DNA of 57,510 nt from the IMG/VR virus record IMGVR_UViG_3300035698_011381. The stretch is one strand, 5' to 3'. This DNA is from a virus. Shown here in pieces: positions 42,144 through 57,510 of this stretch. Numbering within the stretch: position 1 is the stretch's first letter; each line of letters starts with the position of its first letter. The notes beneath the pieces were generated by a model. The model saw only the letters and a list, made by a program, of their open reading frames with translations, did not search any database and had not been told where the DNA came from. Made by a program: the position numbers and the translations under genes.

Positions 42144-42539
42144 TTAAATTTCTACTGCGGGTAATCGTAAATTGCGTTCGTCAAGGGTCAGCCACTTGTC
42201 CTCTGGGTAGCCGTGCTCCCCCATAAATCCATCCCAGTCTGCTAGGTCGGCAGGTGTGACCCCATGTTGCCTCCATGCAGGGGCGTACATAGCCGCTAGG
42301 AGGATGATCGTGGTCTCACCTAGGTCTGTGGTCATGTGGGGGAACGTGAACTCCCTAAGCGTCTTCTGCTCGGTTACAGCCTCATCGCCTTCTATGACCT
42401 CACCCGTAGGTTTGCTACCCCACTTTGCACCTTCTGGAATCAAGGTGTCCATCATGTTGGTCGGAATCTCACAAAAGGCGTAGTAACGCACGTAGCCCGT
42501 TGAGCCAACCACTTTGAATCGTTCGTATTCTTCAATCAT
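42144..42539 (-). CDS. Hypothetical protein
   Basis: TAATG coupling to the upstream stop; 131 aa. Confidence 0.5.
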   Translation of the reverse strand: MIEEYERFKVVGSTGYVRYYAFCEIPTNMMDTLIPEGAKWGSKPTGEVIEGDEAVTEQKTLREFTFPHMTTDLGETTIILLAAMYAPAWRQHGVTPADLADWDGFMGEHGYPEDKWLTLDERNLRLPAVEI

Positions 42540-43978
42540 TACAGGTCTCCAAATTCAAGGCTGTTGGTGTAGCACACGTCGCCAATCCAGCGGATCATCT
42601 TGTCATATGACGTGAGTGTCCACTCATAAGCAATGCTCCAAGTCAACGCGTCGATAAAGAAGCCGTCTTCGCATTTTAAAACCACGTTGTTGGTGAAGTT
42701 CGCATGATCCGCAAAGTCCTCAAACGACTTGGCATCATAGTTTGCTTCGTCAGCAGACCAGAACGGCGTTAGCAGGAACTCATCGTTCTCCGCTTTCTGT
42801 TTAATGCTGTGTGGCCCATTGTTGTGCAGGATGCCAGCAGGATTCGTGATGGGGTTGCCTGCGACATCTGTTAGCCCAGAGGCTAATGCGGGCAGGTAAT
42901 GCTCTGCTCCGCCCGTCAAAACGCCCGTTGCCCATGCGCTAGAGCTTGGAAGCGTCGAGCCGTAGAAGTTCTTTAAATCGTATGTCAGAACGCCGTCAAT
43001 GCTAATGGTCGCCACATAGCCATCTACAACCGTAATTACACCGTCTACTGCGTTATCTACCGTGGCTGTTCCGGTACTGGTCACAGCGTGCGTGGTCAGC
43101 AGATCGGTTACGGCTATTGATGTGTCGTCTACATCTAGCAGAACCTTACTCCCACCTTCCCCTGCGAAGGGGTGGCTTACGTCTTGGGTTCCTGACCATA
43201 CAGCGTCTAGATCTGCCGTGGCGATCGTTCCGTCGTTCCCGTTGTCGCTGATGTCGTAGGCTTTGTCGCCTGATTTTTCGGTGAGGGGTAGGTGAATAGA
43301 AGATGCGAACGAGCAGTCACCGTCCATACATGATGCAATTTCGGTCGGGGTCAACGCTTGTGGAATAGCACGAACACCGGCCATAGAACCAGCCCAATAA
43401 CGCCCAGACGGGGCACTAGCGGAAACGCCTAATATGAATTTAGTGAAGGCCGCTGACCCCAGAGTTCCCGTGGAGTTCTCTGACGTTGAAAGAACAGCGT
43501 CTTTGTATATGTAGGTTTTAGCTCCATCCCAAACGCAAGAAATGTGATGCCAGTTTGTGTCGGTGAAGAATCCGCTTTTCTGAGTAGTGCCATCCCCAAT
43601 TCCGTTATGCCTAAACAGTAAAGTCGTTCCACTATGTCTGATATAGCAATCCGTATTCCCTGCTTCTATAATCCACGCCTGCTCGCTTACTGCGGCGGGC
43701 TTTGCCCACACCATAATTGTAAAATTAGAGGTCGGTTTGCCCGATAACGCTCCGACGTTAACTTTGTCACCGCTCCCATCAAGCGTCAGGCACGGCGACT
43801 CCACATAGTCCCCATCAAGCCCGTTCTTGTCTACCGCCGTGCTGGGGGACAGGAAGCTGTAGAGCCATTGCAGGGGGGAGAGGGATAGGGGAGAGAAGAC
43901 TCCTGTCGTGTGCAGACCGGAGAATGCCGTAAGGAGTTTCCCGAAGGAGAGTCCCGAGTTAAATCCTAGACGGCCCAC
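42539..43978 (-). CDS. LamG/concanavalin-like lectin-domain protein (possible fibre or receptor-binding protein)
   Basis: FTIMVWAKP...NWHHISCVWDGAKTYIYKDAVL matches the Laminin-G_3 pattern. GTG start with a GGAGG RBS. Confidence 0.5.
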   Translation of the reverse strand: MGRLGFNSGLSFGKLLTAFSGLHTTGVFSPLSLSPLQWLYSFLSPSTAVDKNGLDGDYVESPCLTLDGSGDKVNVGALSGKPTSNFTIMVWAKPAAVSEQAWIIEAGNTDCYIRHSGTTLLFRHNGIGDGTTQKSGFFTDTNWHHISCVWDGAKTYIYKDAVLSTSENSTGTLGSAAFTKFILGVSASAPSGRYWAGSMAGVRAIPQALTPTEIASCMDGDCSFASSIHLPLTEKSGDKAYDISDNGNDGTIATADLDAVWSGTQDVSHPFAGEGGSKVLLDVDDTSIAVTDLLTTHAVTSTGTATVDNAVDGVITVVDGYVATISIDGVLTYDLKNFYGSTLPSSSAWATGVLTGGAEHYLPALASGLTDVAGNPITNPAGILHNNGPHSIKQKAENDEFLLTPFWSADEANYDAKSFEDFADHANFTNNVVLKCEDGFFIDALTWSIAYEWTLTSYDKMIRWIGDVCYTNSLEFGDL

Positions 43979-43979
43979 G

Positions 43980-44288
43980 TTAGCCTCCTTTTTGCTCGAC
44001 CATCACCTTGACAACCACGTCGGCTTCGGAAGCCAGCAGGTAGGTGTTGCTCACGTTGAAATCCTTATAGGAGATGGAAGCCGGTTCGGTGATGGGCGAG
44101 AGCGTGATCCCTGCCGTTTCGTCTTCACTCAGCACGTCCACCGTGCCTGTAGCCTCGGGGTCGATCTGAATGATGAGCCCTGCGCATCTGTCGTTGTCGT
44201 TTGGAAAAACGTGCGGAATATCCGCCGCTTCCATGAGAGTTTTAAGGTCTGTCGCCGCGATTCCGGCCTTTACGATAACAGTAAACAT
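43980..44288 (-). CDS. Hypothetical protein
   Basis: AAGGAG RBS; 102 aa. Confidence 0.5.
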   Translation of the reverse strand: MFTVIVKAGIAATDLKTLMEAADIPHVFPNDNDRCAGLIIQIDPEATGTVDVLSEDETAGITLSPITEPASISYKDFNVSNTYLLASEADVVVKVMVEQKGG

Positions 44289-44360
44289 GGGCTTCTCCTT
44301 GGTTCGGTTAATAGAAGGGTGTCAGATTGCCACTCCTCGCCCTGCTCGTCAACCCTTTTC

Positions 44361-45638
44361 CTACTCGTCCTCCTCCGCTTCGTACTTCGCACTGGAAATG
44401 GCCGCGTCTCTTAACGCCGCTAAACCCTCGTTTTCTTCGTTGGCGGTAAGCCCGAACAACTGCGCCTTGAGTTTCAGGGTAGCGAGTTCCGCGCGGGGGT
44501 CGTCGGCAAGGTCGCACTTCTCGGCGATGGCGTCGATCTGTTTGATGAGGATAGCCTTCTCGACTTCTGCCGATTCGTTGTAAAGTAGTGGGCCGATGCT
44601 CTTCGCGGTCTTCACGATGTCGAGAGCCTCGAACCGTGTGTATCCGAAATAGTCCTGCATGTACTGCTCGGTCGAGCGCACGGACATCTGCATGAGCTTA
44701 TCGTAAATCAGGAGCACGAGCTCCTCTTCGTACATGACGAGTTCATCCCGCGTCGGCCACGCCACTCGCGCAATGGTAGGGTTCAGTAGCCCCGCTAATC
44801 CGTACTCCCCGCTCCACGGCTCCTGCGGCGCACCGTGATGTATCCCCACCTGTTCCGATAACACTGTCATCGCTTCACAGTACAGTATCAGGGGCATGTC
44901 CTTGGCGACGGAGTACTCGTCGGGGACGGCACGCGACAGCCTCCACCCCCAGATCCCCTCGGGTGTTTGCACAGGATAAAGATGGTCGGGGATTGGAGGC
45001 GGGAGGGTGGTGACTCCTTTAAAACCACGGTACCCGTCGTTCGTGTTAAACGTGTATCGGTCGCGCCCTGTCTCTGTCTTCAGTAAAATGTTCCGCGCAC
45101 CTCGCATGCCTGTGAGAAATCCCGACTGCGCTAGTTTCTGGGGGAGTGCCCACTGGTTCACGCCCGTGTTCCCGACGTTGAGTCCCAGCACGTTCTGTAG
45201 CATCTCGTAGCCGGTTAGTATCCCCCTCACCCGCGCCATCTGCCGCAGTAGTCGGTACGCCACCCGTATTCTGTAACCCTTTGTGTCGGAGAGGGTAAGC
45301 GTTCCTGCGGCGAGGAGCTTTTCGAGTTTTTGTGCCTTGGTGTGCCTGCTGGCTTTGTTCAACAGTGCTTGGTGTTGGATCTCGCCGGGGGTCGCGGGGG
45401 GAAATATCCCTGTCGCTCGCTCGCGCCGTACAGTTGACGGGAGGGACTCGTCCGCCCTCGCGCCGGAGAGATGCGACGGGAAGTTACCGGACGCCGCTTC
45501 TTCGATTGTCAGCCCGTGGGCGTACCGCGCTTGCGCCACGGCTCGGGAATACAGGTCTTCAGGGTCGAGTAGAATACTCTCTTCCGCCGTGGCGAACGTC
45601 ACCGCACTCGGCTCTAGTTTTAATAGGTCGGTCGTCAT
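44361..45638 (-). CDS. Hypothetical protein, first gene of the late block
   Basis: 425-aa ORF with an acidic C-terminus and no motif that I recognise. Confidence 0.55.
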   Translation of the reverse strand: MTTDLLKLEPSAVTFATAEESILLDPEDLYSRAVAQARYAHGLTIEEAASGNFPSHLSGARADESLPSTVRRERATGIFPPATPGEIQHQALLNKASRHTKAQKLEKLLAAGTLTLSDTKGYRIRVAYRLLRQMARVRGILTGYEMLQNVLGLNVGNTGVNQWALPQKLAQSGFLTGMRGARNILLKTETGRDRYTFNTNDGYRGFKGVTTLPPPIPDHLYPVQTPEGIWGWRLSRAVPDEYSVAKDMPLILYCEAMTVLSEQVGIHHGAPQEPWSGEYGLAGLLNPTIARVAWPTRDELVMYEEELVLLIYDKLMQMSVRSTEQYMQDYFGYTRFEALDIVKTAKSIGPLLYNESAEVEKAILIKQIDAIAEKCDLADDPRAELATLKLKAQLFGLTANEENEGLAALRDAAISSAKYEAEEDE

Positions 45639-45828
45639 AGGTTCAAGGGGTCTCCCGTTTATTTTTCCGGTGCCACTGTTACACGTCGCCTCCCTTTTAG
45701 TAAAGGAAAAAGTTACCCACTACGCGTAGCGTCCCCGATATTTTTCGACTGTGAAGGGGGTCGTTCTATTTCCAGATAAGGGGGCATATTTAAAGTAGAC
45801 TGTTTTCGAGTGGTTCGTTTAAAAAATC

Positions 45829-45881
45829 CCCCCGTGAAATTTTGAGCCCGAGAAATTGCCCCCGTGAAATTTTGAGCCCGA
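45829..45881. repeat. Two 23-bp direct repeats cccccgtgaaattttgagcccga, spaced 30 bp start to start
   Basis: Read directly at 45829..45851 and 45859..45881. Confidence 0.9.
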
Positions 45882-45940
45882 ATAAAAATCGACCTTCGAG
45901 GTTTGCGGGGGGGAAGTGCACCCGCGCCCGGATGCTCCAC

Positions 45941-45980
45941 GTAGCCGCTATCTCTTACACGTAGCCGCTATCTCTTACAC
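45941..45980. repeat. 20-bp tandem repeat x2 (gtagccgctatctcttacac), followed by a GC-rich gcccgccccgcccgcccg tract
   Basis: Read directly. Confidence 0.9.
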
Positions 45981-46072
45981 GCCCGCCCCGCCCGCCCGAT
46001 TAAAACAGATTTGAAAACATAATATTGACACGTTACTCTTTATCTGTTACGCGTGCCCGCGTTCCTATAAGC

Positions 46073-46295
46073 GCGGGCCGGTATACGCGGGCCGGTATAG
46101 GATACAGGATACAGCGGGCCGGTATAGGATACAGGATACAGCGGGCCGGTATAGGATACAGGATACGCGGGCCGGTATACGCGGGCCGGTATACGCGGGC
46201 CGGTATAGGATACAGGATACAGCGGGCCGGTATACGCGGGCCGGTATAGGATACAGGATACAGCGGGCCGGTATAGGATACAGGATACGCGGGCC
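46073..46295. repeat. Iteron-like array: 10 full copies plus one partial copy of GCGGGCCGGTATA, separated by either C or GGATACAGGATAC(A)
   Basis: Core copies start at 46073, 46087, 46114, 46141, 46167, 46181, 46195, 46222, 46236 and 46263, with a partial copy at 46289. Confidence 0.95.
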
Positions 46296-46552
46296 CCGTG
46301 ATCGTACCTTTTACATTTTTAAAAACTAGGCCTGATTTGAAGATCACGAAAAAAGGCCGGGTTGCTCTTGTAAATTTAAAAAACACTACTTTTCGGGATA
46401 TAGGGGGGAAAATACGGTTTACGCTTGTATTTTTAAAAAAGGGCCCTTTTTTGAAGATCAATATAATGACCCCTTCACAATTCCAAATAACCACGTATTT
46501 TTAATTTTACACAATCTTAAAAGGTAACTAATATATATTTGAAAACTTTTAA

Positions 46553-46582
46553 TATATACCATATAACCCATAGTGGTATATA
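46553..46582. repeat. Inverted repeat tatatacca-N12-tggtatata in the AT-rich segment
   Basis: Perfect 9-bp arms. The related tatatataccata recurs near 46706. Confidence 0.8.
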
Positions 46583-46783
46583 TAAAACATATTTGAGTTA
46601 AATAGTTTTTCGCGCTCGATCGCCACAATTCCGGATACCCGGCACTTTTTAAATTTACAAGCCGATATTCCCTTTTATCTTTGTAAGTGTTTCATTTTAG
46701 CTTTTTATATATACCATAGGAATCAGCACTATCCGTCTATAGCGCTCTATTTTTAAAAAACAAAAGAAAATTGAAAAAGAGGG

Positions 46784-46811
46784 TTGACATATAGATGGGG
46801 CGTGCTAAATT
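46784..46811 (+). promoter_or_regulatory. Sigma70-like promoter candidate for the early block
   Basis: TTGACA, a 16-nt spacer containing TGc, then TAAATT (an extended -10-like element), about 50 nt upstream of the first RBS-supported early ATG. Confidence 0.45.
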
Positions 46812-46862
46812 GACATTATGAAAACAGCCCAAAACAGAAACCAACCAAAAGGAGTCAAGATT

Positions 46863-47087
46863 ATGCGAGAGTCAATAGAAATAGTTAAACTAGCGCCAAG
46901 CCGCTACGAAGTGCAGATAGTTAAAGATGACCCTAAATTTGATAAGAGCTACAGCATAGCGGGCGAATACAAAACCCTCTCTATTGCTATCAGTACCGCA
47001 AAGCGTATTGCAAAAAGAAATGGCGGAATGATAATAGGCAGGCCGTCCACAGCAAACGAAAAGAGAGCCGCAAAGAGGATTGCCTAA
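46863..47087 (+). CDS. Early hypothetical protein
   Basis: AAGGAG RBS before the ATG at 46863, in frame with track ORF 46818..47087. Confidence 0.55.
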   Translation: MRESIEIVKLAPSRYEVQIVKDDPKFDKSYSIAGEYKTLSIAISTAKRIAKRNGGMIIGRPSTANEKRAAKRIA

Positions 47088-47125
47088 CCATGTTCAAGAC
47101 AGAAACCAAACCAAAGGAGAACATC

Positions 47126-47296
47126 ATGACAATTAGAACGCTCAAAGCAATCAATAAGAAAACCGGAGAAACGAAATCATTCTGTGATTGTGATTGCAAC
47201 AGACTGATAAAGCGGCGGGATGAGTTCATATCCGACATGACAGATCGCGGGGAATACTGGACTTACGCCCCAGTCTCTATTGTATCGGGAATCTAA
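47126..47296 (+). CDS. Early hypothetical protein
   Basis: AAAGGAGA RBS before the internal ATG of track ORF 47090..47296. Confidence 0.5.
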   Translation: MTIRTLKAINKKTGETKSFCDCDCNRLIKRRDEFISDMTDRGEYWTYAPVSIVSGI

Positions 47297-47342
47297 AAAC
47301 CCGCCCACGCAAGGGGCAAAGTAAACGCATAAAGGGGAAAAG

Positions 47343-47435
47343 ATGAAACGTGAATCTGAACTCATAAACGAGCTAATAGTAATAATCGTATCGGCTGTAA
47401 TCGTAGCACTAATCATTGCTGTAAAAACAGCGTAA
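47343..47435 (+). CDS. 30-aa hydrophobic peptide
   Basis: AAAGGGGAAAAG leader. MKRESELINELIVIIVSAVIVALIIAVKTA. Confidence 0.4.
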   Translation: MKRESELINELIVIIVSAVIVALIIAVKTA

Positions 47436-47452
47436 AGAATAAAGGGGAAAAA

Positions 47453-47626
47453 ATGAAAGCACCTACAGAAGCACTTAATAAGAAAATAAACGAGCTTGCA
47501 ACTCTATGTAATAACATTAGCACCTACCTTTCCGGGTGCCATAGCGAAAACGAACAAACAGCCGCACTTATAAAGAGTATAGTCACTAGGCTTTGGGATG
47601 AATTAGACACTATCCCAGAAAAGTAA
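47453..47626 (+). CDS. Early hypothetical protein (57 aa)
   Basis: AAAGGGGAAAAA leader. MKAPTEALNKKINELATLCNN... Confidence 0.45.
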   Translation: MKAPTEALNKKINELATLCNNISTYLSGCHSENEQTAALIKSIVTRLWDELDTIPEK

Positions 47627-47649
47627 TTAAACGAAAAAAAGGGGAAAAG

Positions 47650-47802
47650 ATGACACTTGAAAAACAGATTATGAGAGAAGAATTAACCATGTTGAAAGAA
47701 GAACTAAAAGAAGCGGTTGCGCTATACCGCCGCGAGCCTAACGACTGGAATGGAGAGTCCGTTTCCGATTTACGCGAGGAAATCGCAAAGCTAGCACGCT
47801 AA
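47650..47802 (+). CDS. Early coiled-coil protein (50 aa)
   Basis: AAAGGGGAAAAG leader. MTLEKQIMREELTMLKEELKEAV... Confidence 0.45.
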   Translation: MTLEKQIMREELTMLKEELKEAVALYRREPNDWNGESVSDLREEIAKLAR

Positions 47803-47850
47803 CCGGTTCGCCCCACGCAAGGGGCAAAGTAAACGAAAAAAGGGGAAAAG

Positions 47851-48027
47851 ATGACACTTGAAAAACAGATTAGAAACGCATACGAGAAAGCCTATGGGGT
47901 CAAAACAGTTGACTATGAAGGCGAAATTTCCAAAGAAAAAAATACAATCGCCGTCGAAATTTGCGAAGATGGAACGGTTTTTGAACATGAGAAAGGTGGC
48001 GTTTCTTACGTTAAAATAATAATTTAA
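47851..48027 (+). CDS. Early hypothetical protein (58 aa)
   Basis: Same leader and the same first 7 codons (MTLEKQI) as 47650..47802. Confidence 0.45.
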   Translation: MTLEKQIRNAYEKAYGVKTVDYEGEISKEKNTIAVEICEDGTVFEHEKGGVSYVKIII

Positions 48028-48054
48028 AATGAGATTCAACTAAAAGGGGAAAAG

Positions 48055-48327
48055 ATGAAAGCCACGAAATTAAAGTACCTAACAGATAAAAACGGAAAAG
48101 AGCCTTTCTTTTCAGACTTGAAAGAAAAAGGGCGTATAGTAACAGAGCCACTTCATTGTCACACTGCCGGACTTATGCAAACTTCGACAGGATACGGTTC
48201 AAAACTAGCTACGCCCTACAAAATAAATGACTGTAACAGACTGAAAAGAATTTACGCCATTTGTTACAGCAACGCTTCCAGTTTATATATTTTCCGCAAA
48301 GACAAGCGCGTCTTTATCCATAGCTAA
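48055..48327 (+). CDS. Early hypothetical protein
   Basis: AAAGGGGAAAAG leader; MKATK start. Confidence 0.55.
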   Translation: MKATKLKYLTDKNGKEPFFSDLKEKGRIVTEPLHCHTAGLMQTSTGYGSKLATPYKINDCNRLKRIYAICYSNASSLYIFRKDKRVFIHS

Positions 48328-48357
48328 CAGCATAAAGAAAGAAGGGGAAAAGAAACC

Positions 48358-48606
48358 ATGAAAACGAAACTAGAAAAACAGGCCAAAGGGGAAAAGATGA
48401 CAAAGACAGAATCAAGAATATCAACAGGGAAAAATGATTATCTCTCTATCACCTTGCGGGGGAAGTTCGCGGCAGAATACAAATTCGACTTCATACTCTT
48501 GAAATGTTTTGTTTGCATTGGAGCAGATTTGTTTCCCTCAGCAATCCACGAATACACCGACAAGCAAGATATGTTTGCCGACATTGAAAAACTACGCAAC
48601 GCATAA
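48358..48606 (+). CDS. Early hypothetical protein
   Basis: GAAACC-ATG-AAA leader. An alternative start at 48396 also has a GGGGAAAAG leader. Confidence 0.5.
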   Translation: MKTKLEKQAKGEKMTKTESRISTGKNDYLSITLRGKFAAEYKFDFILLKCFVCIGADLFPSAIHEYTDKQDMFADIEKLRNA

Positions 48607-48616
48607 AGGGGAAAAG

Positions 48617-48793
48617 ATGAAAGCCACGAAAACGCGCTACAAGAAAATTGATCTATACGTTTACAATCCTGTTACAAAACAATTTGCATACTACGCATCC
48701 ACTACATGGCACGGGACACGCAAGAGCGCAAAAAGGATGCTAGTTGATAAACTAATGATTAAGCCGGAACACGTCAAAGCATCAGTGGCATAA
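48617..48793 (+). CDS. Early hypothetical protein (58 aa)
   Basis: AAAGGGGAAAAG leader; the MKATK start is identical to that at 48055. Confidence 0.5.
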   Translation: MKATKTRYKKIDLYVYNPVTKQFAYYASTTWHGTRKSAKRMLVDKLMIKPEHVKASVA

Positions 48794-48814
48794 ACCCGAA
48801 AAGGAAAAGAAACC

Positions 48815-48925
48815 ATGAAACCGAAAAAAAGAAACACGCCCGGCACGTACAAAACCCCTTCGATCTTCACCCTCTTAAAAGAGTATTTTAAAGAGTACCG
48901 CGCCCGGCACGCCCGAAACATTTAA
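48815..48925 (+). CDS. Possible 36-aa basic peptide
   Basis: AGGAAAAGAAACC-ATG leader; it terminates at the TAA inside the first 27-bp repeat unit. Confidence 0.3.
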   Translation: MKPKKRNTPGTYKTPSIFTLLKEYFKEYRARHARNI

Positions 48926-48976
48926 AACAGACTGAAACCCCGAAACATTTAAAACAGACTGAAACCCCGAAACCCC
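48915..48976. repeat. 27-bp tandem repeat x2.3 (gaaacatttaaaacagactgaaacccc)
   Basis: Units at 48915..48941 and 48942..48968, then a partial gaaacccc. Confidence 0.9.
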
Positions 48977-48994
48977 ATAGAAGGAAAAGAAACC

Positions 48995-49864
48995 ATGAAA
49001 ACGAAAAAAAGCAAAATAGAACAAGCTACAGTAGAAACATACTTGCCGATATTTCCCGGATTTTACGGTACACTATACGGCGCGGAGGATTCCGACGACG
49101 AAGAGCAGGCGATAAACGGCCTGTTAGAGCCCGCGGGATTTGCGCCCTCTCAAATAAACCCACTCTCAAAGGCTGTTTTCGACTTTGGAAGCGGCGCTGT
49201 AGAATTCGACTATTCCACATACTACCGCGATTATCTGGAAGAAATATCGGAAACCGTAGCGGCGGAATTGGAAGGTGTGCCGGGTTTCGTTTCTATGGAA
49301 CTACAAGGAATGAGGAGCCCGAAAGAATACAATTTTGCAAATGATTCCGGCGACGTTATTTTAAACCTATCAAATGAAAGGGCCTTTCGGGCGTGGATTT
49401 TAAAACAGTGCCGAATTGATCGTGCCGGGTTTGCGGAATACATACGGAAAAAATACACGTCTCGAAGCGGTTTTATGTCTTTTTATTCCAGTGACTCGAA
49501 AGACTGGATAAATGACATACGGGCCGGGCTCGACGAATTAGACGGGCACAAACTAGGCAGACTGTTAGACTATTATTTTTCCGAAATATCGGAGTTTGAC
49601 GACTGGGCACTTTACGAAACAGCAGAAAAGCCTTACTTGTCGGAATACATGAGTGGGCCGGTAGTCGATATTTTTGAGAAGGAAATGGGAAACCTACCGG
49701 AAAAGGTTTCCGGTATACTCGAAAGCATAAACGCGGGCCGGGAACAATTGAAAGCGTACGCGGAAAAGATGCCTTGTAACGCGGCAGCCCGCCAAGAGAC
49801 CGGGCTAATCAAAAACGAAACGAAACTTTATAAGGCGGCAGTCGAAACACTTATAGAAGCGTAA
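48995..49864 (+). CDS. Early hypothetical protein (289 aa)
   Basis: Cassette leader. It starts MKTKKSK...YLPIFPGFYGTLY and is acidic. Confidence 0.6.
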   Translation: MKTKKSKIEQATVETYLPIFPGFYGTLYGAEDSDDEEQAINGLLEPAGFAPSQINPLSKAVFDFGSGAVEFDYSTYYRDYLEEISETVAAELEGVPGFVSMELQGMRSPKEYNFANDSGDVILNLSNERAFRAWILKQCRIDRAGFAEYIRKKYTSRSGFMSFYSSDSKDWINDIRAGLDELDGHKLGRLLDYYFSEISEFDDWALYETAEKPYLSEYMSGPVVDIFEKEMGNLPEKVSGILESINAGREQLKAYAEKMPCNAAARQETGLIKNETKLYKAAVETLIEA

Positions 49865-49899
49865 AACAGACTCCAAACCCCGAAAAGGAAAAAGAAACC

Positions 49900-50244
49900 A
49901 TGAAAGCAACATTTAAGAAAATCGGAACAGACTACTTGCCCGCCATTAAGCACAAAAGCGGCAGACTTGAAACCCTTCACGGAGACGCGCTAGCTACTAC
50001 CGCAACGGCTACGAAGTACGCTCAGTTTGAAATAAACGAGCGTAGCCGGCGGCACGCTAAAGCAACCCCGGCACCCGTGGAAACGGCCCCGGCCCCGGCT
50101 TGGATAACTCCAAACCAATTCGCGGCACTATGCGACGAATACCTTATTCTTCCAGCCTTGGCACTCGAAAACGAGACTGTAAAAGGTGCCGTGCATCAAA
50201 AAGATTTAGACGCTTTGAAAGAAGCACTTGCAACTGAATTCTAA
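49900..50244 (+). CDS. Early hypothetical protein
   Basis: Cassette leader aacagactccaaaccccgaaaaggaaaaagaaacc-ATG; MKAT start. Confidence 0.55.
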   Translation: MKATFKKIGTDYLPAIKHKSGRLETLHGDALATTATATKYAQFEINERSRRHAKATPAPVETAPAPAWITPNQFAALCDEYLILPALALENETVKGAVHQKDLDALKEALATEF

Positions 50245-50277
50245 ACAGACTCCAAACCCCGAAAAGGAAAAGAAACC

Positions 50278-50526
50278 ATGAAAGCAACATGCCTAAATAT
50301 CACACGAGACCGCAACGGAAACAAAACCGTTTCTTTCAAGTCATGCACCGGAAAGCGCGGTTTTTCTATCCAGACTAGCGGCAACACGCCCGGCCTTAAC
50401 AGACTGCCAACCGGGGAAACTATCGCGGCACATTCCCGCGTCGAATTGTGGAAAGAATTTCTGGAATATGTCCGGGACTTTGGCACCGCCCGGCAGAAAA
50501 GTTTTTTCGAACTGACCGACATTTAA
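50278..50526 (+). CDS. Early hypothetical protein
   Basis: Same cassette leader; MKAT start. Confidence 0.55.
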   Translation: MKATCLNITRDRNGNKTVSFKSCTGKRGFSIQTSGNTPGLNRLPTGETIAAHSRVELWKEFLEYVRDFGTARQKSFFELTDI

Positions 50527-50576
50527 AAACACAAACCAATACGCGCCGGGCGTATCCCGGCAGAAAAGGAAACCAC

Positions 50577-50903
50577 ATGAGCCGCTCAATAAGCTACATA
50601 GTAACGTTTAACAATAACAAAACGAAAATGATAGCGGGACTGTTTAACCCGCACGGGGCGGAACACTTCACATCCCATTTTAACGGGGCGGAACAGACCG
50701 CCTTTGTAAAAAAGATCACAACTTTTGAGACTGGAAACTTGAAAAGCATAAAATCCCGCCGGTTAGGGTTCAATGCTTCATGCTGTGACTCTAAAAAACC
50801 GCATTTAGGCGGTATTGAACTTTTGGAATATAAATTTCCCGCGTTCCGTGGGACATTAGACAAAGTGTTTCAGGCTGTAAACGAGTTTCGGGGCAACTCA
50901 TGA
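50577..50903 (+). CDS. Early hypothetical protein
   Basis: The internal ATG of track ORF 50448..50903 is preceded by a GC hairpin and AAAAGGAAACC. Confidence 0.5.
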   Translation: MSRSISYIVTFNNNKTKMIAGLFNPHGAEHFTSHFNGAEQTAFVKKITTFETGNLKSIKSRRLGFNASCCDSKKPHLGGIELLEYKFPAFRGTLDKVFQAVNEFRGNS

Positions 50904-51100
50904 CTCTCTTACAGGCAACGGCCCGCGCCCGCGCCCTTGCGCCGTCTAACGGGTACGCGCTAGCAATACATATAGCCGCAAACGAAAGCGGCTACAGCAC
51001 GGGGAAAATAAGCGCGGAACTTCGTAAAGGCCGCAAGCGTAAAAAGTACGATTGCAAACCCGCGCCGGGCGTGCAGCAGTGGAAACCGTACGCGGATTAG
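50900..51100 (+). CDS. Early hypothetical protein
   Basis: ATGA coupling to the upstream stop. Confidence 0.5.
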   Translation: MTLLQATARARALAPSNGYALAIHIAANESGYSTGKISAELRKGRKRKKYDCKPAPGVQQWKPYAD

Positions 51101-51165
51101 ACTGAAACCCCGAAACATTTAAAACAGACTGAAACCCCGAAACATTTAAAACAGACTGAAACCCC
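51099..51165. repeat. 27-bp tandem repeat x2.5 (same unit as 48915..48976)
   Basis: A partial unit at 51099..51111, then full units at 51112..51138 and 51139..51165. Confidence 0.9.
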
Positions 51166-51182
51166 GAAAAGGAAAAGAAACC

Positions 51183-51356
51183 ATGAAACCGAAGCCACTT
51201 ACAAGCCGGGACTATAACGTAGCGTTTAAGATCTATATGGAAACCCTCAAAAAATTGAAACACAAAGACACGAGAGAAAACCGCGCGGCATTCGGCAAGG
51301 CATCCCGCGAATGTTCACGAGTTGCGGCCGTGTGCTTTGCGCCTATACCCTTTTAA
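51183..51356 (+). CDS. Early hypothetical protein (57 aa)
   Basis: Cassette leader. MKPKPLTSRDYNVAFKIYMETLKK... Confidence 0.45.
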   Translation: MKPKPLTSRDYNVAFKIYMETLKKLKHKDTRENRAAFGKASRECSRVAAVCFAPIPF

Positions 51357-51442
51357 AACAGACTAAAACCCCGAAACATTTAAAACAGACTGAACCCCCG
51401 AAACCCCGAAACATTTAAAACAGACTGAACCCCCGAAACCCC
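51351..51442. repeat. 35-bp tandem repeat x2 plus a partial unit (27-bp variant gaaacatttaaaacagactgaaccccc plus gaaacccc)
   Basis: Units at 51373..51407 and 51408..51442, preceded by a partial copy at 51351..51372. Confidence 0.9.
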
Positions 51443-51458
51443 GAAAGGAAACGAAACC

Positions 51459-54143
51459 ATGAAAACGAATACACCTATCAGCACACCCGCCGAAACACTC
51501 GACCTATCAGAAACCACGTACCCCGGCCAGCGTACCCGCCCCGCCGAAGATGTAGAAAATACCGAGATTCTTAAATGGGCAAGCGAAGCCGGGCCGCGAC
51601 AGACTGCCGACGTAAAAAAAGCCTTCGGTAAGGTACTCGGGGCCGGAAGCGGCACGCGGGTCCTGTCCTCGTGGCCCGACGGCTCAGAACATGAGAGCGT
51701 ACAGTATATCATGGGATGCCCGACCGACGAGGAACAGACACACAAAAACAAACAGACTGACGCGCTCAATGTTTTACACGCGGCGCACGGCGGGAAAATC
51801 ACGCGGGAAAATTGCCGCGCCCTCATAGCCGCCGCGCTAGAACTAATCCCAACCCTTAGAGACTGCCAACCGGTACGCGACGAGCGCAAGAGCATAGAGC
51901 AACACGCGACGGAAGCCGAAGAGCGGAAAGCCGCGCAGGAAAAGAGGGAAGAAAAACAGGCAGAAGAAAAAGCGAAAAAATGGGCGGAAGAGGAGACCGC
52001 CGCGCTTGATTACCCCTACCTTTCCCGCGTAGGGGGGAGCGGGGGCGGAAAAGATGCCGCTAAAAATATAAGACTGACCTTGAAAAAGGAGTTTCCCGGT
52101 ATTCGTTTCTCGGTAACTTCTGACTATTCTAGAGTTCAAATAAACTGGAACGACGGCCCGACCGCCGACCAAGTCGAAGCCTTCACAAATAACTTTAAAG
52201 AAGGACACTTTGACGGGATGACAGACAGTTACAACTACAACTCGACCGCGTTTAACGACGCTTTTGGGGGATGTCGATACATTTTCACGAGCCGAAACAC
52301 GCGGGAGCTTCTGCAGACTGTAAAAGCCGCACTTCCAGAAATGGGCAACCTCGACGACTGGGAAACGGAACAACATAAAAACCGGAAAGCGCGGGAGCTG
52401 ATTAGTAAAACAGACTTGACCGGAAAAGGTGCCTTTCTCGCAGTGATCGACCCCGAAGAGGGGACGGGGTGCCACGTTGTAGAGCTCGCGCTAAAGTTTG
52501 AAGAGACCACGGCACCCGCGACCGACGCCGCCCGTCAAACGCCCGCCACGGGGCCGGTGACTATCGAAGAGCACACACACACGAAAAAAGGCTTTCAGAT
52601 GTGGCTTGTGAGACTATCCGACCGCGTAGAGCGCGACGAGTTCCAAGCACTCAAAAGCACCGCGCAGGGGCTGGGGGGTTGGTACTCTCGCAAGTGGGGC
52701 ACGACCCCCGCAGGCTTCGCGTTTAAGACTCCCGAAGCCGCGCAGACTTTCGCGGACGGCATCGCGGGCACCGACCCCGAGCCGACGGGCACCGACGCGC
52801 CGCCGACAGACTCCAAAGCCGAAGCAATCCCAGCACCTTACAACGTCCAGAGTGCCGACTACACGCCCGAGGAGAAAGAAGTCAAAGCGAGAACCGTGGG
52901 ACAACTGCCGCACCCTCTACGCCTTCCGGCCCTCGCGGACATCGGGCGGGCTATCGGAACGGAAAAGGAAATAAAGTTCGGCTGGTGGCTGTCTATGAGT
53001 CTCGACCTCACACGGGGCGAAGAGGACGGGCACCCGCTCAAAGAGTACATGAGGACGACCGGCGACAATCTGCCGCTCTCGCTTCTCAACTGGAAGCCGG
53101 AGCCGGAGCCGGAGCCGGAACCCTACGGCACCGACCCGCACGAAACAACAGACTGCGACACGCCCCGCCCAAACTCAGCCGCTAACAGTGCCGAGAAGCT
53201 CCGCGCCATGGCCGACCGCCTGACTTCCCAGATCGAAGATAAAACCCGCGACATGACCCAGATCCCGACGCCCAAGCGCAATTTAGAATATAAGGCGCGG
53301 ATGATCGAAGGGCACCACCTCGAACGGGTACAGACTGCCGCGCGGGTTCTGGCCGACGGTCTCGAAGCGGGCACCCTCCCGCCTATCTTGCAGACCGTCC
53401 GAACGAAAAAGGACTTGCTCAAATACACGGAGACACGTTCCGACATGTCCGGGGGTTATTATTCCATTGTTGACACCGGCGAGTTTTCCGACACGTCACC
53501 GGCGGCGGTAGCGTTACTGACTCTCCTCAAAGAGGCCAGCGACCCCGAAGCGGAAGCGGCACGGAAAAAGGAGACTGAATTAAAGAATAAAATTCTGAAC
53601 CTCACGGGGCAGAAAATCCCCGGATTCTTCCCGACGCCGTGCGCCGTAGCGGAGAAAATGCTCGACGCCCTCGACATTCAAGAAGGGGAGACTGTTCTTG
53701 AGCCTTCCGCCGGTACCGGGAACCTAGCAGAACGAGCCCGAGACGCGGGAGGGGTCGTGACGTGTGTAGAAATACGCCCGAGCCTGTGCGAGATCCTAGA
53801 ACTAAAAGGGTTCATTACTTTCTGCGAAGATTTTACAAACCCCAACGGGGAAGATACTGGAATCTCTCGATTCGATAAAGCGATAATGAACCCGCCCTTT
53901 GAAAAGGGACAGGATGCCGACCACATCCGCGCCGCTTACCACTGCCTTAAAGACGGCGGACGGCTCGCGGCTATCGCTGGGGAAGGTATTTTCTTCCGCA
54001 CTGACTCGAAGGCTACCGCCTTCCGCGACTGGCTCGAAGAGGTAGGCGGCACGTCGGAACAACTCCCGGCGGGGTCGTTCCAAGGTACCGGCGAAGTATC
54101 CCAGACCGGTACAGATACGCGCCTCGTCATCATTACACGCTAA
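51459..54143 (+). CDS. Large polyvalent early protein with a C-terminal gamma-class N6-adenine DNA methyltransferase domain
   Basis: C-terminal motif I VLEPSAGTGNLA precedes motif IV IMNPPFEKG. The upstream modules include GIRFSVTSDYSRVQINWNDGPTADQVEAFTNNF and HTHTKKGFQMWLVRLSDRV...GGWYSRKWG, linked by EPEPEPEP. Confidence 0.75.
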   Translation: MKTNTPISTPAETLDLSETTYPGQRTRPAEDVENTEILKWASEAGPRQTADVKKAFGKVLGAGSGTRVLSSWPDGSEHESVQYIMGCPTDEEQTHKNKQTDALNVLHAAHGGKITRENCRALIAAALELIPTLRDCQPVRDERKSIEQHATEAEERKAAQEKREEKQAEEKAKKWAEEETAALDYPYLSRVGGSGGGKDAAKNIRLTLKKEFPGIRFSVTSDYSRVQINWNDGPTADQVEAFTNNFKEGHFDGMTDSYNYNSTAFNDAFGGCRYIFTSRNTRELLQTVKAALPEMGNLDDWETEQHKNRKARELISKTDLTGKGAFLAVIDPEEGTGCHVVELALKFEETTAPATDAARQTPATGPVTIEEHTHTKKGFQMWLVRLSDRVERDEFQALKSTAQGLGGWYSRKWGTTPAGFAFKTPEAAQTFADGIAGTDPEPTGTDAPPTDSKAEAIPAPYNVQSADYTPEEKEVKARTVGQLPHPLRLPALADIGRAIGTEKEIKFGWWLSMSLDLTRGEEDGHPLKEYMRTTGDNLPLSLLNWKPEPEPEPEPYGTDPHETTDCDTPRPNSAANSAEKLRAMADRLTSQIEDKTRDMTQIPTPKRNLEYKARMIEGHHLERVQTAARVLADGLEAGTLPPILQTVRTKKDLLKYTETRSDMSGGYYSIVDTGEFSDTSPAAVALLTLLKEASDPEAEAARKKETELKNKILNLTGQKIPGFFPTPCAVAEKMLDALDIQEGETVLEPSAGTGNLAERARDAGGVVTCVEIRPSLCEILELKGFITFCEDFTNPNGEDTGISRFDKAIMNPPFEKGQDADHIRAAYHCLKDGGRLAAIAGEGIFFRTDSKATAFRDWLEEVGGTSEQLPAGSFQGTGEVSQTGTDTRLVIITR

Positions 54144-54185
54144 CCCACTACCGCGCCGGGCGGACTCCCGGCAGAAAGCGGAACC

Positions 54186-54299
54186 ATGAAAGAAAAACTA
54201 ATTATGTTACTGCAAGTTGTAGCGGGCACGATAATCATAGCCGCGCTCGCGGGCTCTGTCGGCCCGATATATGACGCGGTGCAGGCGTTCATTAAATAA
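54186..54299 (+). CDS. 37-aa hydrophobic peptide
   Basis: GC hairpin plus a GGAACC-ATG-AAA leader. MKEKLIMLLQVVAGTIIIAALAGSVGPIYDAVQAFIK. Confidence 0.4.
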   Translation: MKEKLIMLLQVVAGTIIIAALAGSVGPIYDAVQAFIK

Positions 54300-54314
54300 A
54301 AGGAGACTGAAAAT

Positions 54315-54491
54315 ATGAACGTAAATTTAAAAGGGTTAGCGGCTGACGCGTGGTTCAACGAGATACCGCTTGACGATCCGTACGCCCCGTGCCCGTGCGG
54401 ATGCGGTAAGAAATGGAAGTTCATAAAGGCTGACTACGAAGAACACGAGGCCCGATTTATCAAGGCTTTTATCTTAAACGAAACCAAATAA
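54315..54491 (+). CDS. Small protein with a SEC-C-like metal-binding motif (58 aa)
   Basis: AAGGAGAC RBS; CPCGCGKKWKF. Confidence 0.5.
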   Translation: MNVNLKGLAADAWFNEIPLDDPYAPCPCGCGKKWKFIKADYEEHEARFIKAFILNETK

Positions 54492-54506
54492 AAGGAGACT
54501 GAAACC

Positions 54507-54665
54507 ATGGAAAAACCACCCGGAGTAATCATCGCACCCGTCCCCAAGGGGCACGCCCGAAGGAGACTGACCAGCTTTATAAGGCAGGCCGCGCTCCTCG
54601 GGCTACTCTTCGCCGTGGCGGGCACATTCGCCGCCGTCGCACTCAAAACGTTAATCAGTAAATAA
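54507..54665 (+). CDS. 52-aa membrane peptide
   Basis: AAGGAGAC RBS; LLGLLFAVAGTFAAVAL TM segment. Confidence 0.45.
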   Translation: MEKPPGVIIAPVPKGHARRRLTSFIRQAALLGLLFAVAGTFAAVALKTLISK

Positions 54666-54678
54666 GGAGACTGGAAAC

Positions 54679-55233
54679 ATGGAAAAAGTAACATTCAAAG
54701 AAGTACAAATCGGAGAAACCTACAGACTGCGTGCGGACGGCTGTTCCTACAAAAAGAACGGCCCCAACACGGGACTAATCCAAGGCAAGGCACGAGAAGA
54801 GGAGTACGGCGTCCGTCAATCGAAAGAGGTGTGCGTAAAGACACCAAGCGTCATCCACCTAAAGAAAACGAACTTCAGGCTTGTTTCCAACGGGGAAAAG
54901 TTCTGGACTCCGTTCGGCAATCACTTCAGACGATACACCAAGGGATCGCCCGACGAAGCACGCAACGACGCTACAGGCACGATCACACGTTTTGATGCCC
55001 ATAGAACAGTGCACGTTAGTCAGCTTCCTACAAAGGTCGTCGAGCTCCCCGCCCCGAAAAAGGTAAAGGAAAAGCCCGTCGTGACTGTGGCCTTTGAAGG
55101 CTTCCAGTTCCGGGAGGGCAAGGTAGGCGGCGAGACTATCGAAAACATCGAGACGTTGATTAAGACGCTCCAGAAAAAACGCCGACTGTACAAGCGGTTC
55201 GCCCTCCTGCACGGATGGATGCCCTACAAGTAA
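54679..55233 (+). CDS. Hypothetical protein
   Basis: AAGGAGAC RBS; 184 aa. Confidence 0.6.
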   Translation: MEKVTFKEVQIGETYRLRADGCSYKKNGPNTGLIQGKAREEEYGVRQSKEVCVKTPSVIHLKKTNFRLVSNGEKFWTPFGNHFRRYTKGSPDEARNDATGTITRFDAHRTVHVSQLPTKVVELPAPKKVKEKPVVTVAFEGFQFREGKVGGETIENIETLIKTLQKKRRLYKRFALLHGWMPYK

Positions 55234-55292
55234 ACGAATCAGAGGGAGAGGGGCGATCCCCTCCCTCGTAACCCTCCAAGGAGACACTGACC

Positions 55293-55445
55293 ATGAAAAA
55301 CTACCGACCCAACGACGACGAGCCCGCCCCGCACTTCGAGAAGATCAAAAGCCACAAGCACCAGCACGGGAAACACGAACGCCTGAACAAGGACACACGC
55401 GCCCGCAGACTCGAACGCATCCGAATTAAAGAGGACATACAATAA
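55293..55445 (+). CDS. 50-aa highly basic/His-rich peptide
   Basis: AAGGAGAC RBS. MKNYRPNDDEPAPHFEKIKSHKHQHGKHERLNK... Confidence 0.4.
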   Translation: MKNYRPNDDEPAPHFEKIKSHKHQHGKHERLNKDTRARRLERIRIKEDIQ

Positions 55446-55504
55446 GACCTTGACGTACAGAAAAATGTAAAGTAAAAGGGATAGGAAATTAGAGGAGACT
55501 GAAA

Positions 55505-55828
55505 ATGAAAAAGAAAACGTATTACGCGAACAACGGGGCCGTCGCGGAGGTAGAAACAACTGAAACAACGGAGACTGAAAAAGGGGAACCGATTAGCCAG
55601 AAAGTTTACGACGCCCTGCATGCCTTTTACAGGGTGGGCAACGCAGACCCTCGATACCTCTACCTCGGGTACTTAGAAGCCGAACAGTTAAGGGCGCACG
55701 TGGCGTTCGTACTACAGGAAGACGCCGCCTTCCTGAGCGGGGGGAAGTACGAGGGCATGGAAGTGATGTGCGTGAGCACCATCAGCCACTTGTCTATCGG
55801 CGGGGTAAAAGAGAAGGAGACTGCCTAA
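55505..55828 (+). CDS. Hypothetical protein
   Basis: GAGGAGAC RBS; 107 aa. Confidence 0.55.
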   Translation: MKKKTYYANNGAVAEVETTETTETEKGEPISQKVYDALHAFYRVGNADPRYLYLGYLEAEQLRAHVAFVLQEDAAFLSGGKYEGMEVMCVSTISHLSIGGVKEKETA

Positions 55829-56523
55829 TGAACAAGAAAAAAATACATGAATTATCGGAACGGCTGAAGGAGTTGAAGGAGAGCCACGCGTACTTAGAAT
55901 TTATGGCACCGTCTAAAGACATGTGCGTCGCCCTCTCTGCCCTTGAGAATAACATCATCACCACCACGAAGGAGCTGTATAAGGCTCAGGATGTGGACTA
56001 CTTCCCTACCGCTATCGAGGACGGCGGGGTCGTTATGTACTTATTGTTCCGTAAAGGGGGCTTAGAGCCCGTCGTCGCGCGACTCGACCCATCCGTCGCG
56101 GCAACCATCAAAGAGGCCAAAATCACGCTATTCGCGTCCTCTTCAGGGCGTTCGTGGTTCCTCGCCGCTAAGGAGACGGATGGAACGGTGTTCCGCGTAG
56201 CCCGTACGGTGAAAGGGATAACCGACCCCGACAAGATCGTACTTCCCAAAAACGAGGACGTGTTCGATTGCCGCCTTAAAAATCTCGAAGAAACCACACG
56301 CTCGGATGCGACTCGTAAGAGGGTAGACGAAAACGGCGATAGAGAGAACGGCATCCAGAAAGTCGGGGAGAAGTACCGCGTAAACGTGTACGTCCCCGAC
56401 CGGGGCTGTGCGGTGTACGGGGGGCTACACGGAGACATCAAGGACGCTCGGGAAGCTCGGGACGGTATTTTAGACAAGGAGAGAGCAGACCACCGACCAA
56501 AGAACAAAGGGAGAAACCAATGA
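55828..56523 (+). CDS. Putative DNA-binding protein with a C-terminal AP2-like domain
   Basis: TAATG coupling. GIQKVGEKYRVNVYVPDRGCAVYGGLHGDIKDAREARDGIL resembles the AP2 strand-strand-helix pattern. No HNH motif was seen. Confidence 0.4.
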   Translation: MNKKKIHELSERLKELKESHAYLEFMAPSKDMCVALSALENNIITTTKELYKAQDVDYFPTAIEDGGVVMYLLFRKGGLEPVVARLDPSVAATIKEAKITLFASSSGRSWFLAAKETDGTVFRVARTVKGITDPDKIVLPKNEDVFDCRLKNLEETTRSDATRKRVDENGDRENGIQKVGEKYRVNVYVPDRGCAVYGGLHGDIKDAREARDGILDKERADHRPKNKGRNQ

Positions 56524-56717
56524 GCGACAAAAAGACACCCAATAGCCTCGATGAACTGGTTAGCATGCCTGTTGTGAAAGTGAATCACGGCAAAGCATTC
56601 GGGAACAAAGATTGGTTCACCTATTACTGTGGATCGTGCAAAAAACAACTTGATTCAACTCACATGCGCAAACCTTGCTCTTGTGGCGTTGTTGCCGTGT
56701 GGAATGCTAACGTTTGA
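56520..56717 (+). CDS. Small zinc-ribbon protein
   Basis: ATGA coupling; YYCGSCKK...CSCG. Confidence 0.5.
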   Translation: MSDKKTPNSLDELVSMPVVKVNHGKAFGNKDWFTYYCGSCKKQLDSTHMRKPCSCGVVAVWNANV

Positions 56718-56741
56718 GTTGACTTTCCGAAGGAGGAAACT

Positions 56742-56927
56742 ATGAAAGAAAAAACGAGCGTTACTGAGGTAAAGTCCAATTCCTTGTTGGATTTGTGGAG
56801 TTGCCGAATCGAACAGTACCAAGTTAAAAGGAGAGATGCCTCTTCATCTTCTGTACAGCGTCAATACACAATCAGGATTCGTGAAATACAGAAGTGCATA
56901 TCGGAGCTGAACAAATACAACGCCTGA
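56742..56927 (+). CDS. Hypothetical protein
   Basis: GGAGG RBS; 61 aa. Confidence 0.5.
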   Translation: MKEKTSVTEVKSNSLLDLWSCRIEQYQVKRRDASSSSVQRQYTIRIREIQKCISELNKYNA

Positions 56928-56994
56928 AATGAGGGGCGGGTAATCCCGTACTCTCTATTTCTTTGTTCGATTCTTAATTACGGAGGAAATGAAA

Positions 56995-57510
56995 ATGAAA
57001 CTTATGCAAGGCGATTGCCTAGAACGAATGAAAGAAATTGAGAGTGGATCAGTTGACATGGTGCTAACCGACCCGCCCTACGGAACCACGGCCTGCAAAT
57101 GGGATTCTGTTATCCCGCTTGAGGCGATGTGGGAGCAGCTTAAGCGCGTTATCAAGCCGAACGGTGCTATAGTGATGACTGCGAGCCAGCCTTTTACGAC
57201 GACGCTAATCGCATCCAACATGAAGATGTTTAAGTATTGTTGGGTGTGGGAAAAAAGCAAGGGTTGCAACTTTACTCACGCCAAGAATATGCCTATTAAA
57301 TTCACAGAGGATGTCTGCGTGTTCTCGCCTGCGCCCATAGGGCATAAAGTTCAATTAAAAGAACGCAGAATGTCGTACAATCCGCAGGGGCTTGTTCGTG
57401 TCGATAAGAAATGGAGCAGACCAAGGAAATACGAGAACGGGCATAAACTCAAGCGAGATTCCCATAAGCTAGAACGAACCATTGAGTTTGAGAACTACCC
57501 CAGAAATCTA
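56995..57510 (+). CDS. DNA methyltransferase (beta-class N6A/N4C type), 5' part; continues at 2..418 across the circular junction
   Basis: GGAGG RBS 7 nt upstream of the ATG. Translation MKLMQGDCLERMKEIESGSVDMVLTDPPYG carries the DPPY catalytic motif. The frame is open to the window end and in phase with ORF 164..418. Confidence 0.85.
   Translation, partial: MKLMQGDCLERMKEIESGSVDMVLTDPPYGTTACKWDSVIPLEAMWEQLKRVIKPNGAIVMTASQPFTTTLIASNMKMFKYCWVWEKSKGCNFTHAKNMPIKFTEDVCVFSPAPIGHKVQLKERRMSYNPQGLVRVDKKWSRPRKYENGHKLKRDSHKLERTIEFENYPRNL
57384..57510. repeat. Second copy of the 127-bp terminal overlap
   Basis: Identical to 1..127. Confidence 0.95.

Follow-up and report, generated by a model that had tools for sequence, protein, structure and literature searches.

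A predicted fusion of an LPD29-containing unit with a compact adenine methyltransferase core, encoded ahead of the replication genes of an uncultured phage

Orphan methyltransferases are a standard means by which phages and plasmids escape restriction, and together with polyvalent proteins they form established categories among phage gene products. The gene described here, at positions 51459..54143 on the + strand of IMG/VR virus record IMGVR_UViG_3300035698_011381, adds a member with an atypical genomic position. The record, whose full 57,510 nucleotides make up the window that was analyzed, is the complete 57.5-kb genome of an uncultured phage and closes with a 127-nt repeat. An earlier reading of the letters without database searches (the sequence-only reading) had proposed a single gene for 894 amino acids at this location, and the reading frame is open on that strand, encoding 894 amino acids plus a stop. 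The protein is, by prediction, a fusion of an LPD29-containing unit with a small DNA adenine methyltransferase.

Some of the closest described relatives come from conjugative plasmids. In the leading region of an F-type plasmid, a zone that is expressed on entry and is rich in anti-defence genes, ydcA lies downstream of the DUF3560 gene ydbA and near an antirestriction gene, ssb, and psiA. Its 187-residue product is annotated as a ‘putative adenine-specific DNA methylase’ and is paired with the accessory protein YdbA (DUF3560), and fusions of DUF3560 with methyltransferases exist. No experimental study of YdcA was found in the literature, and it appears to be uncharacterized. Few families are as enriched in leading regions as orphan methyltransferases, for which a role in protection from restriction has been proposed (PMC11541004). 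Another relative is gp60 of Pseudomonas phage H66, an F116-like Hollowayvirus. This is a 3,787-residue PLxRFG polyvalent virion protein, annotated as verified in the virion by mass spectrometry, whose gene closes the late block immediately before the lysis genes. The archetype of the polyvalent proteins that combine a methylase and an SNF2 helicase as a dyad is DarB of phage P1, for which an anti-restriction role has been proposed (Iyer et al. 2017, PMC5512222). The EcoKI/TaqI-like adenine methylases found in polyvalent proteins share a TP-capped helix before the core, motif I, and an NPP(Y/F) motif (Iyer et al. 2017, PMC5512222).

These elements recur in the C-terminal part of the phage protein, where residues 717–894 (53607..54140, + strand) form a predicted compact N6-adenine DNA methyltransferase catalytic domain with matches to PHROG and PADLOC families, YdcA, gp60, and solved folds. 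An FFPTP ‘TP’ motif (residues 723–727, 53625..53639) is followed by a helix at residues 728–738 and aligns to GEFYTP of HsdM chains. Motif I, VLEPSAGTGNLA, which is expected to bind S-adenosylmethionine, occupies residues 746–757 (53694..53729) and is nearly invariant in the family; it opens with VLEPSAGTG (residues 746–754), N-terminal to NPPF. The NPPF of motif IV, the catalytic motif, covers residues 811–814 (53889..53900), and N811, P812, P813, and F814 are kept in at least 90% of sequences. The sequence-only reading had put motif I at about 53692..53727 and NPPF at 53888..53899, in each case within 1–2 nt of where they lie. The best profile matches are to PHROG families that describe methyltransferase modules of giant phage proteins (E=1e-77 to 1e-48) and to the DNA methylase profile mad2 of PADLOC (E=4e-21). 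Furthermore, more than 5,000 plasmid records contain a match to the same module, and most of them are conjugative plasmids of Enterobacteriaceae.

Structural comparison points in the same direction. The top Foldseek matches are HsdM of StySJI, PacII, V. vulnificus, and EcoKI (2okc, 7vs4, 7eew, and 2y7c; E ~1e-8 to 1e-9), followed by M.TaqI (1g38), which aligns over its catalytic domain only with a root-mean-square deviation (rmsd) of 3.9 Å over 205 columns. HsdM subunits are also the nearest solved chains by sequence, at marginal significance (E=0.004–0.06). The HsdM fold alignments span ~400 columns, compared with a catalytic core of ~180 residues, and they therefore probably reach into the helical module that precedes the core. 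This module (residues 573–716, 53175..53606, + strand) stands in the HsdM-N position, carries TPKR, ADxxEAGT, and DTGEF motifs, and is modelled by AlphaFold (AF2) with a predicted local distance difference test score (pLDDT) of 80–94; searched as an isolated segment (residues 574–718, E up to 10) it had no Pfam match.

In the textbook gamma class, a C-terminal target-recognition domain completes the enzyme. The phage protein lacks one, because it ends 80 residues past NPPF and because the 187-residue YdcA aligns to the whole catalytic module, at 33% identity (E=6e-20). Scans of the neighbouring genes found no HsdS-like gene. The C-terminus can thus be read as an intact EcoKI/TaqI-like N6-adenine methyltransferase core without a target-recognition domain. 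Of the earlier assignment to the gamma class, the order of motif I before motif IV stands, and the TP motif and the HsdM/M.TaqI fold agree with it; the C-terminal recognition domain that completes the class is missing.

Upstream of the core, the protein carries several unrelated domains in one polypeptide: LPD29 and at least three further conserved modules in addition to the methyltransferase. Nine full-length homologues from metagenomes (720–805 amino acids) have the same order of an N-terminal domain, a long charged helix, LPD29, a helix-and-hairpin extension, a module with an HxHTK motif, a linker, the helical module, and the methyltransferase; one further homologue of 538 amino acids lacks the methyltransferase and is otherwise arranged in the same order. 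Near-identical DNA was absent from the phage collection. The N-terminal alpha/beta domain (residues 36–145, 51564..51893, + strand) keeps W40, AGPRQ, GxITRxN, and RPVxDER in the homologue alignment, is modelled at pLDDT ~90, and had no match in Pfam, PDB, or Foldseek searches. It is joined by a long helix that is rich in E, K, and A and poorly conserved in sequence (residues 146–184, 51894..52010, + strand) to the LPD29 domain (residues 198–280, 52050..52298, + strand; Pfam PF18847 E=2e-23, PHROG 15549 E=9e-18). LPD29 scores 83 bits against a Pfam cut-off of 27 and is the sole confidently named Pfam domain in the protein. The models have a mean pLDDT of 74–76, rising above 85–90 in the N-terminal domain, LPD29, the helical module, and the methyltransferase, and every module except an insert described below is modelled confidently.

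After LPD29 comes a moderately conserved helix-plus-hairpin extension (residues 282–349, 52302..52505, + strand; AF2 secondary structure, pLDDT 50–85) and then an unnamed module of about 70 residues with the pattern HxHTK...GGWYSRKWG...GGFAF (residues 365–436, 52551..52766, + strand), predicted to fold as beta-beta-alpha-beta-beta-alpha. Across 26 diverse copies of this HxHTK module the mean column identity is 54%, with invariant H, K, G, Y, S, P, G, F, and A residues. Roughly half of the proteins that carry it have it at their very C-terminal end, and Foldseek located it within other phage methylases in the BFVD collection (rmsd 1.2–3.2 Å). Isolated segments and the 26 diverse copies (E up to 10) gave nothing consistent in Pfam, and a PDB profile search returned 0 matches; the N-terminal domain and the extension, searched in Pfam as isolated segments with E up to 10, also gave nothing consistent. 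For the N-terminal half as a whole, Foldseek against PDB found no significant solved relative (best E=0.13). The sequence-only reading had picked out two modules and two kinds of linker here, and they are genuine: its GIRFSVTSDY... segment (52098..52232) falls inside the strong LPD29 match, its HTHTKKGF... segment (52572..52754) belongs to the HxHTK module, where H, K, GGWYS, and P-G-F are invariant across the 26 copies, and both the charged coiled linker (residues 146–184) and a PEPEPEPEP linker (53097..53123) are present.

The N-terminal unit has a wide distribution of its own. A search with residues 1–440 against 1.84 billion representative proteins returned 4,266 representative clusters at E up to 1e-3, among them 1,417 at E up to 1e-10. 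Many of these proteins are 400–430 amino acids long and match residues 35–437 end to end, and they are therefore without a methyltransferase. In a Pfam census of 57 of the matching proteins, LPD29 was present in 53, the methyltransferase in ~18, LPD30 in 7, MutS domain I in 4, DUF3560 in 2, and a ligase OB domain in 1. LPD30 has been noted before as a partner of LPD29 (Iyer et al., PMC5512222). Of these fusion partners, MutS domain I and the ligase OB domain are DNA-directed. Among 80 viral contigs, 6 of 84 LPD29-bearing ORFs (open reading frames) carry the C-terminal methyltransferase type and a neighbouring methyltransferase gene is rare, with the qualification that the profiles for this census were built from close relatives, so that distant copies may be missed. 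These counts show that the unit spanning residues 36–437 (the N-terminal domain, LPD29, and the HxHTK/GGWYSRKWG module) is an independent and widespread module, and that its fusion to a methyltransferase defines a small sub-lineage. Since the N-terminal modules usually occur without a methyltransferase, they are not simply its accessories. On one viral contig (L062, IMGVR_UViG_3300027834_000006), five separate LPD29-matching ORFs lie at 1757–10757 within a 12.9-kb stretch, which suggests a local expansion of the domain.

One possible explanation of the combination is that the N-terminal unit is a DNA-engaging module of the invasion phase that replaces the target-recognition domain and steers a bare methyltransferase core to a structure in phage DNA rather than to a sequence. 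The targets could then be ends, forks, or single-stranded or damaged DNA, and methylation would be protective with relaxed sequence requirements. The fusion of LPD29 units elsewhere to MutS domain I and a ligase OB domain hints at such a substrate, although we regard the proposal as speculative and its chance of being right as slim.

The genomic setting of the gene is unusual for a protein of this type. Virion genes, including those for an intein-bearing large terminase, the tape measure, and the tail, occupy the − strand at about 16.4–46.5 kb. From a divergent control region (~46–46.8 kb), the + strand carries ~25 small ORFs, the 894-residue gene, more small ORFs, and a second methyltransferase, and this run continues over the ends of the record into genes for a DUF5906 primase-helicase, an exonuclease, a helicase, and a DNA polymerase. 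The gene lies ~5 kb into this rightward operon, on the opposite strand to all virion genes. Two related phages keep this arrangement, with the gene surrounded by small ORFs in the interval that separates the divergent control region from the primase-helicase/PD-(D/E)XK genes. The best sigma-70-like promoter is at 46784–46811, just before the first + strand ORF, and a single weak internal terminator-like site was found on the + strand before ~56.4 kb; neither scan was enriched over shuffled sequences, and the operon reading therefore draws weak support from them. Phage polyvalent proteins typically adjoin late or virion genes (Iyer et al., PMC5512222), and by this comparison the placement is atypical. 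Scans with domain libraries detected no MuF, zincin peptidase, portal-associated, or PLxRFG domain in the 894-residue protein. Placement ahead of the replication genes, together with the lack of MuF and peptidase domains, favours synthesis in the infected cell over packaging. The likeness to polyvalent proteins suggested by the sequence-only reading accordingly extends to the possession of several modules, including LPD29, and not to a place among the virion genes, a DarB-type dyad, or a processing peptidase or MuF domain.

The second methyltransferase is also real. The earlier reading had reported a DPPY enzyme at 56995..418; once the 127-nt terminal repeat is removed the gene joins as 56989..57510 + 128..418 (+ strand) and encodes 270 amino acids of the beta class, with DPPY. 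Pfam assigns it to N6_N4_Mtase (E=4e-32), and the nearest solved structures in PDB are those of DpnA (E=2e-20) and CcrM (E=6e-17). Conserved blocks link it to a beta-class enzyme from the leading region of an F-type plasmid (E=1e-13), so that both phage methyltransferases have counterparts in leading regions. Pfam and PHROG scans of the larger and neighbouring ORFs found no cognate nuclease beside either gene, with small novel nucleases remaining possible, in agreement with the earlier description of two orphan methyltransferases. Nuclease families were signalled in only two places: by a weak HNH-family match on 55828..56523, and by the exonuclease of the replication module (3920..5731), the counterpart of which has a Pfam PDDEXK_1 domain in a related phage. 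The ORF at 55828–56523 (+ strand, 231 amino acids) lies between the two methyltransferases; its PHROG HNH-endonuclease match (E=2e-4) covers residues 137–226 only, and by eye this part looks like an AP2-type DNA-binding domain.

Restriction has left a clear imprint on the genome. Compared with expectations from a maximal-order Markov model of the whole genome, CTCGAG (0 observed, 27.9 expected), CCGCGG (1, 29.5), GCCGGC (1, 23.1), GTCGAC (0, 19.7), TTCGAA (1, 20.6), GCGCGC (0, 13.0), and GACGTC (0, 12.7) are almost missing, and GGCC, CCGG, and GATC (168 observed, 232 expected for the last) are moderately depleted genome-wide. The near absence of so many 6-bp palindromes indicates that restriction is a real selective pressure on this phage, which fits its investment in two methyltransferases.

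The reading that we favour, with a probability of about one half (0.5), is that the protein is made inside the cell and provides self-protective adenine methylation of replicating phage DNA. The fusion protein would be made in the infected cell from the rightward, pre-replication operon, and its C-terminal core would methylate the adenines of phage DNA as this is replicated. Progeny would thereby carry a genome that some of the restriction systems of the next host could no longer attack, an effect added to those of the second, beta-class methyltransferase and of the avoidance of restriction sites in the genome. The N-terminal unit would either bring the methyltransferase to its DNA substrate or carry a second, separate activity in the invasion phase.

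Several observations weigh against this reading. With a gathering score of 20.4 bits, Pfam N6_Mtase reaches only 15.1 bits for the full-length sequence and a borderline 20.8 bits for the module taken alone, and RNA-methylase families score similarly on this domain. The missing target-recognition domain makes it unclear how a sequence would be recognized. No methylation data were found for the protein or its close relatives, and its early expression is read from gene order alone. Several of the strongly avoided palindromes contain adenine, so protection is not blanket, and this argues against complete, sequence-independent adenine methylation. The infecting genome itself can gain no protection from a methylase whose synthesis starts after entry. 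Finally, homologous modules sit in the virion-packaged gp60 of H66, and injection is the general view of how polyvalent proteins reach the host cell (PMC5512222).

The last of these points leads to a different explanation, in which the capsid carries the protein and delivers it together with the DNA, as for P1 DarB or H66 gp60; methylating or coating the incoming genome would then protect it in cis. In the virion-verified gp60, the counterparts of the HxHTK module and the methyltransferase follow each other in the same order, and polyvalent proteins are described as acting during or just after entry and as typically packaged (Iyer et al., PMC5512222). We nevertheless consider packaging unlikely here, given a gene on the strand opposite to the virion genes, in an operon that leads to the replication genes and with a conserved position, a protein without MuF, zincin peptidase, portal-associated, or PLxRFG domains, and a similarity to DarB that is limited to 51 residues around motif I. 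The same position just upstream of the replication module could instead point to phage DNA metabolism, with methylation serving to mark DNA for replication, packaging, or the timing of transcription, or to interfere with methyl-directed mismatch repair in the host. Phage methylases with regulatory roles exist, for example P1 Dam at pac sites, and the fusion of LPD29 units to MutS domain I and a ligase OB domain suggests substrates of the DNA-repair type. Its closest contexts, in plasmid leading regions and in polyvalent proteins of the virion, nevertheless connect the catalytic module with anti-defence, the genome is under heavy restriction selection, and no regulatory motif is linked to the methyltransferase, which together make this role quite unlikely.

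A further explanation is that the C-terminal domain methylates something other than DNA, such as RNA or protein of the host or phage. NPPF is also found in m2G RNA methyltransferases (RsmC), and NPPY in glutamine methyltransferases. For the C-terminus, Pfam and NCBIfam give sub-threshold matches to RrnaAD/KsgA, the MTS small domain, and HemK-related families that equal N6_Mtase in score, and the lack of a target-recognition domain also counts in favour of such a substrate. Against this, the G-x-F-x-TP element and NPPF match the EcoKI/TaqI-like DNA adenine methylases, the top fold matches are HsdM subunits and M.TaqI, and the best profiles are those of DNA methylases (mad2 and the PHROG ‘DNA methyltransferase’ families). 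From these we infer a DNA substrate, and a non-DNA one seems very improbable.

Other features of the gene and its surroundings are worth recording. A private insert of 108 amino acids between Pro/Glu-rich linkers (residues 455–562, 52821..53144, + strand) is represented by 0–21 residues in 14 aligned homologues and is modelled at pLDDT ~30. Neither tblastn against the phage collection (E up to 1) nor Pfam gave a match to it. A forced MAFFT alignment hinted that it might be a degenerate duplicate of the HxHTK module, and this was rejected on a negative profile score. The LPD29-coding segment (52044–52304) has a G+C content of 46%, compared with 57–62% in the gene flanks and 52% in the genome, which may be a trace of module exchange. 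Tandem 27/35-nt repeats with the core AAACAGACTGAAMCCCC abut the start of the gene in the largest of three arrays (51343–51465, + strand, with the repeats before the start codon at 51343..51442); the other two (48885–48999 and 51082–51196, + strand) lie upstream of two other + strand genes. The repeat has 7 copies in the genome against 0.03 expected, at these three intergenic sites only and all on the + strand, and it was absent from the related phages that were fetched. A dense array of 13/14-nt and 27-nt units (GCGGGCCGGTATA and GGATACAGGATACA) occupies 46058–46300 in the divergent region between the virion and rightward operons. Among the − strand genes, a 901-residue ORF at 38201–40906 contains an intein, with Pfam matches to Intein_splicing (E=5e-21) and the LAGLIDADG_3 homing endonuclease (E=3e-10). 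In a related phage (L004), a small gene matching Pfam ‘Sequestin’ (13728–13937) shares the rightward operon with the LPD29-methyltransferase gene.

The compact methyltransferase family to which the core belongs is common to the leading regions of F-type plasmids (thousands of plasmids), to giant virion proteins, and to the pre-replication operon of this phage, and it appears to have no characterized member. The methylome of one member would annotate the whole family. The LPD29-containing unit is frequent and in most cases not tied to methylation, which makes its function a tractable question in its own right. The presence of one cassette in packaged and non-packaged contexts also provides a natural comparison between counter-defence proteins that are injected and those that are newly synthesized.

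Comparison with the known systems shows how elements of each are combined in the phage protein. P1 DarB belongs with it to the broad EcoKI/TaqI-like adenine methylase group, with a TP motif and NPP(Y/F), but DarB is a virion head protein whereas the phage gene lies outside the virion genes. Orthology to DarB and a DarB-type dyad were both ruled out, since only 51 residues around motif I align (E=8e-4) and a fused SNF2 helicase is missing: here, as in all full-length homologues, the methyltransferase is the last domain of the ORF, with no SNF2/SF2 helicase C-terminal to it. A helicase of the SNF2/ResIII type, which is fused to the methylase in DarB-type proteins, is encoded in this genome by a separate gene of the replication module (7700..9814, + strand). 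HsdM subunits and M.TaqI share the G-x-F-x-TP element, motif I, and the fold of the phage core; HsdM requires the specificity subunit HsdS and M.TaqI has a C-terminal recognition domain, neither of which is present in the phage protein.

Among mobile-element methylases, M.EcoGIX and M.BceJIII are characterized orphan enzymes of plasmid leading regions, specific for single-stranded DNA, that act early after entry and counteract restriction (PMC7736820). Kinship of the C-terminal core with them was ruled out, because they are beta-class DPPY enzymes and here motif I precedes NPPF; their class fits the second methyltransferase of the phage and not the 894-residue protein. YdcA has the same compact build without a target-recognition domain, yet it is a stand-alone protein of conjugative plasmids with an accessory DUF3560 protein, whereas the phage core is fused to the LPD29 unit; YdbA was ruled out as a homologue of the N-terminal half, with no similarity found. 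In H66 gp60, the HxHTK/GGxYS module (residues 1515–1623, E=3e-11) and the methyltransferase (43% identity, E=2e-40) follow in the same order as in the phage protein. LPD23 and LPD3 come after the methyltransferase of gp60, and there, too, it is not followed by a helicase. Unlike the phage protein, gp60 is four times larger, is encoded with the late genes, and has no LPD29 detected by Pfam.

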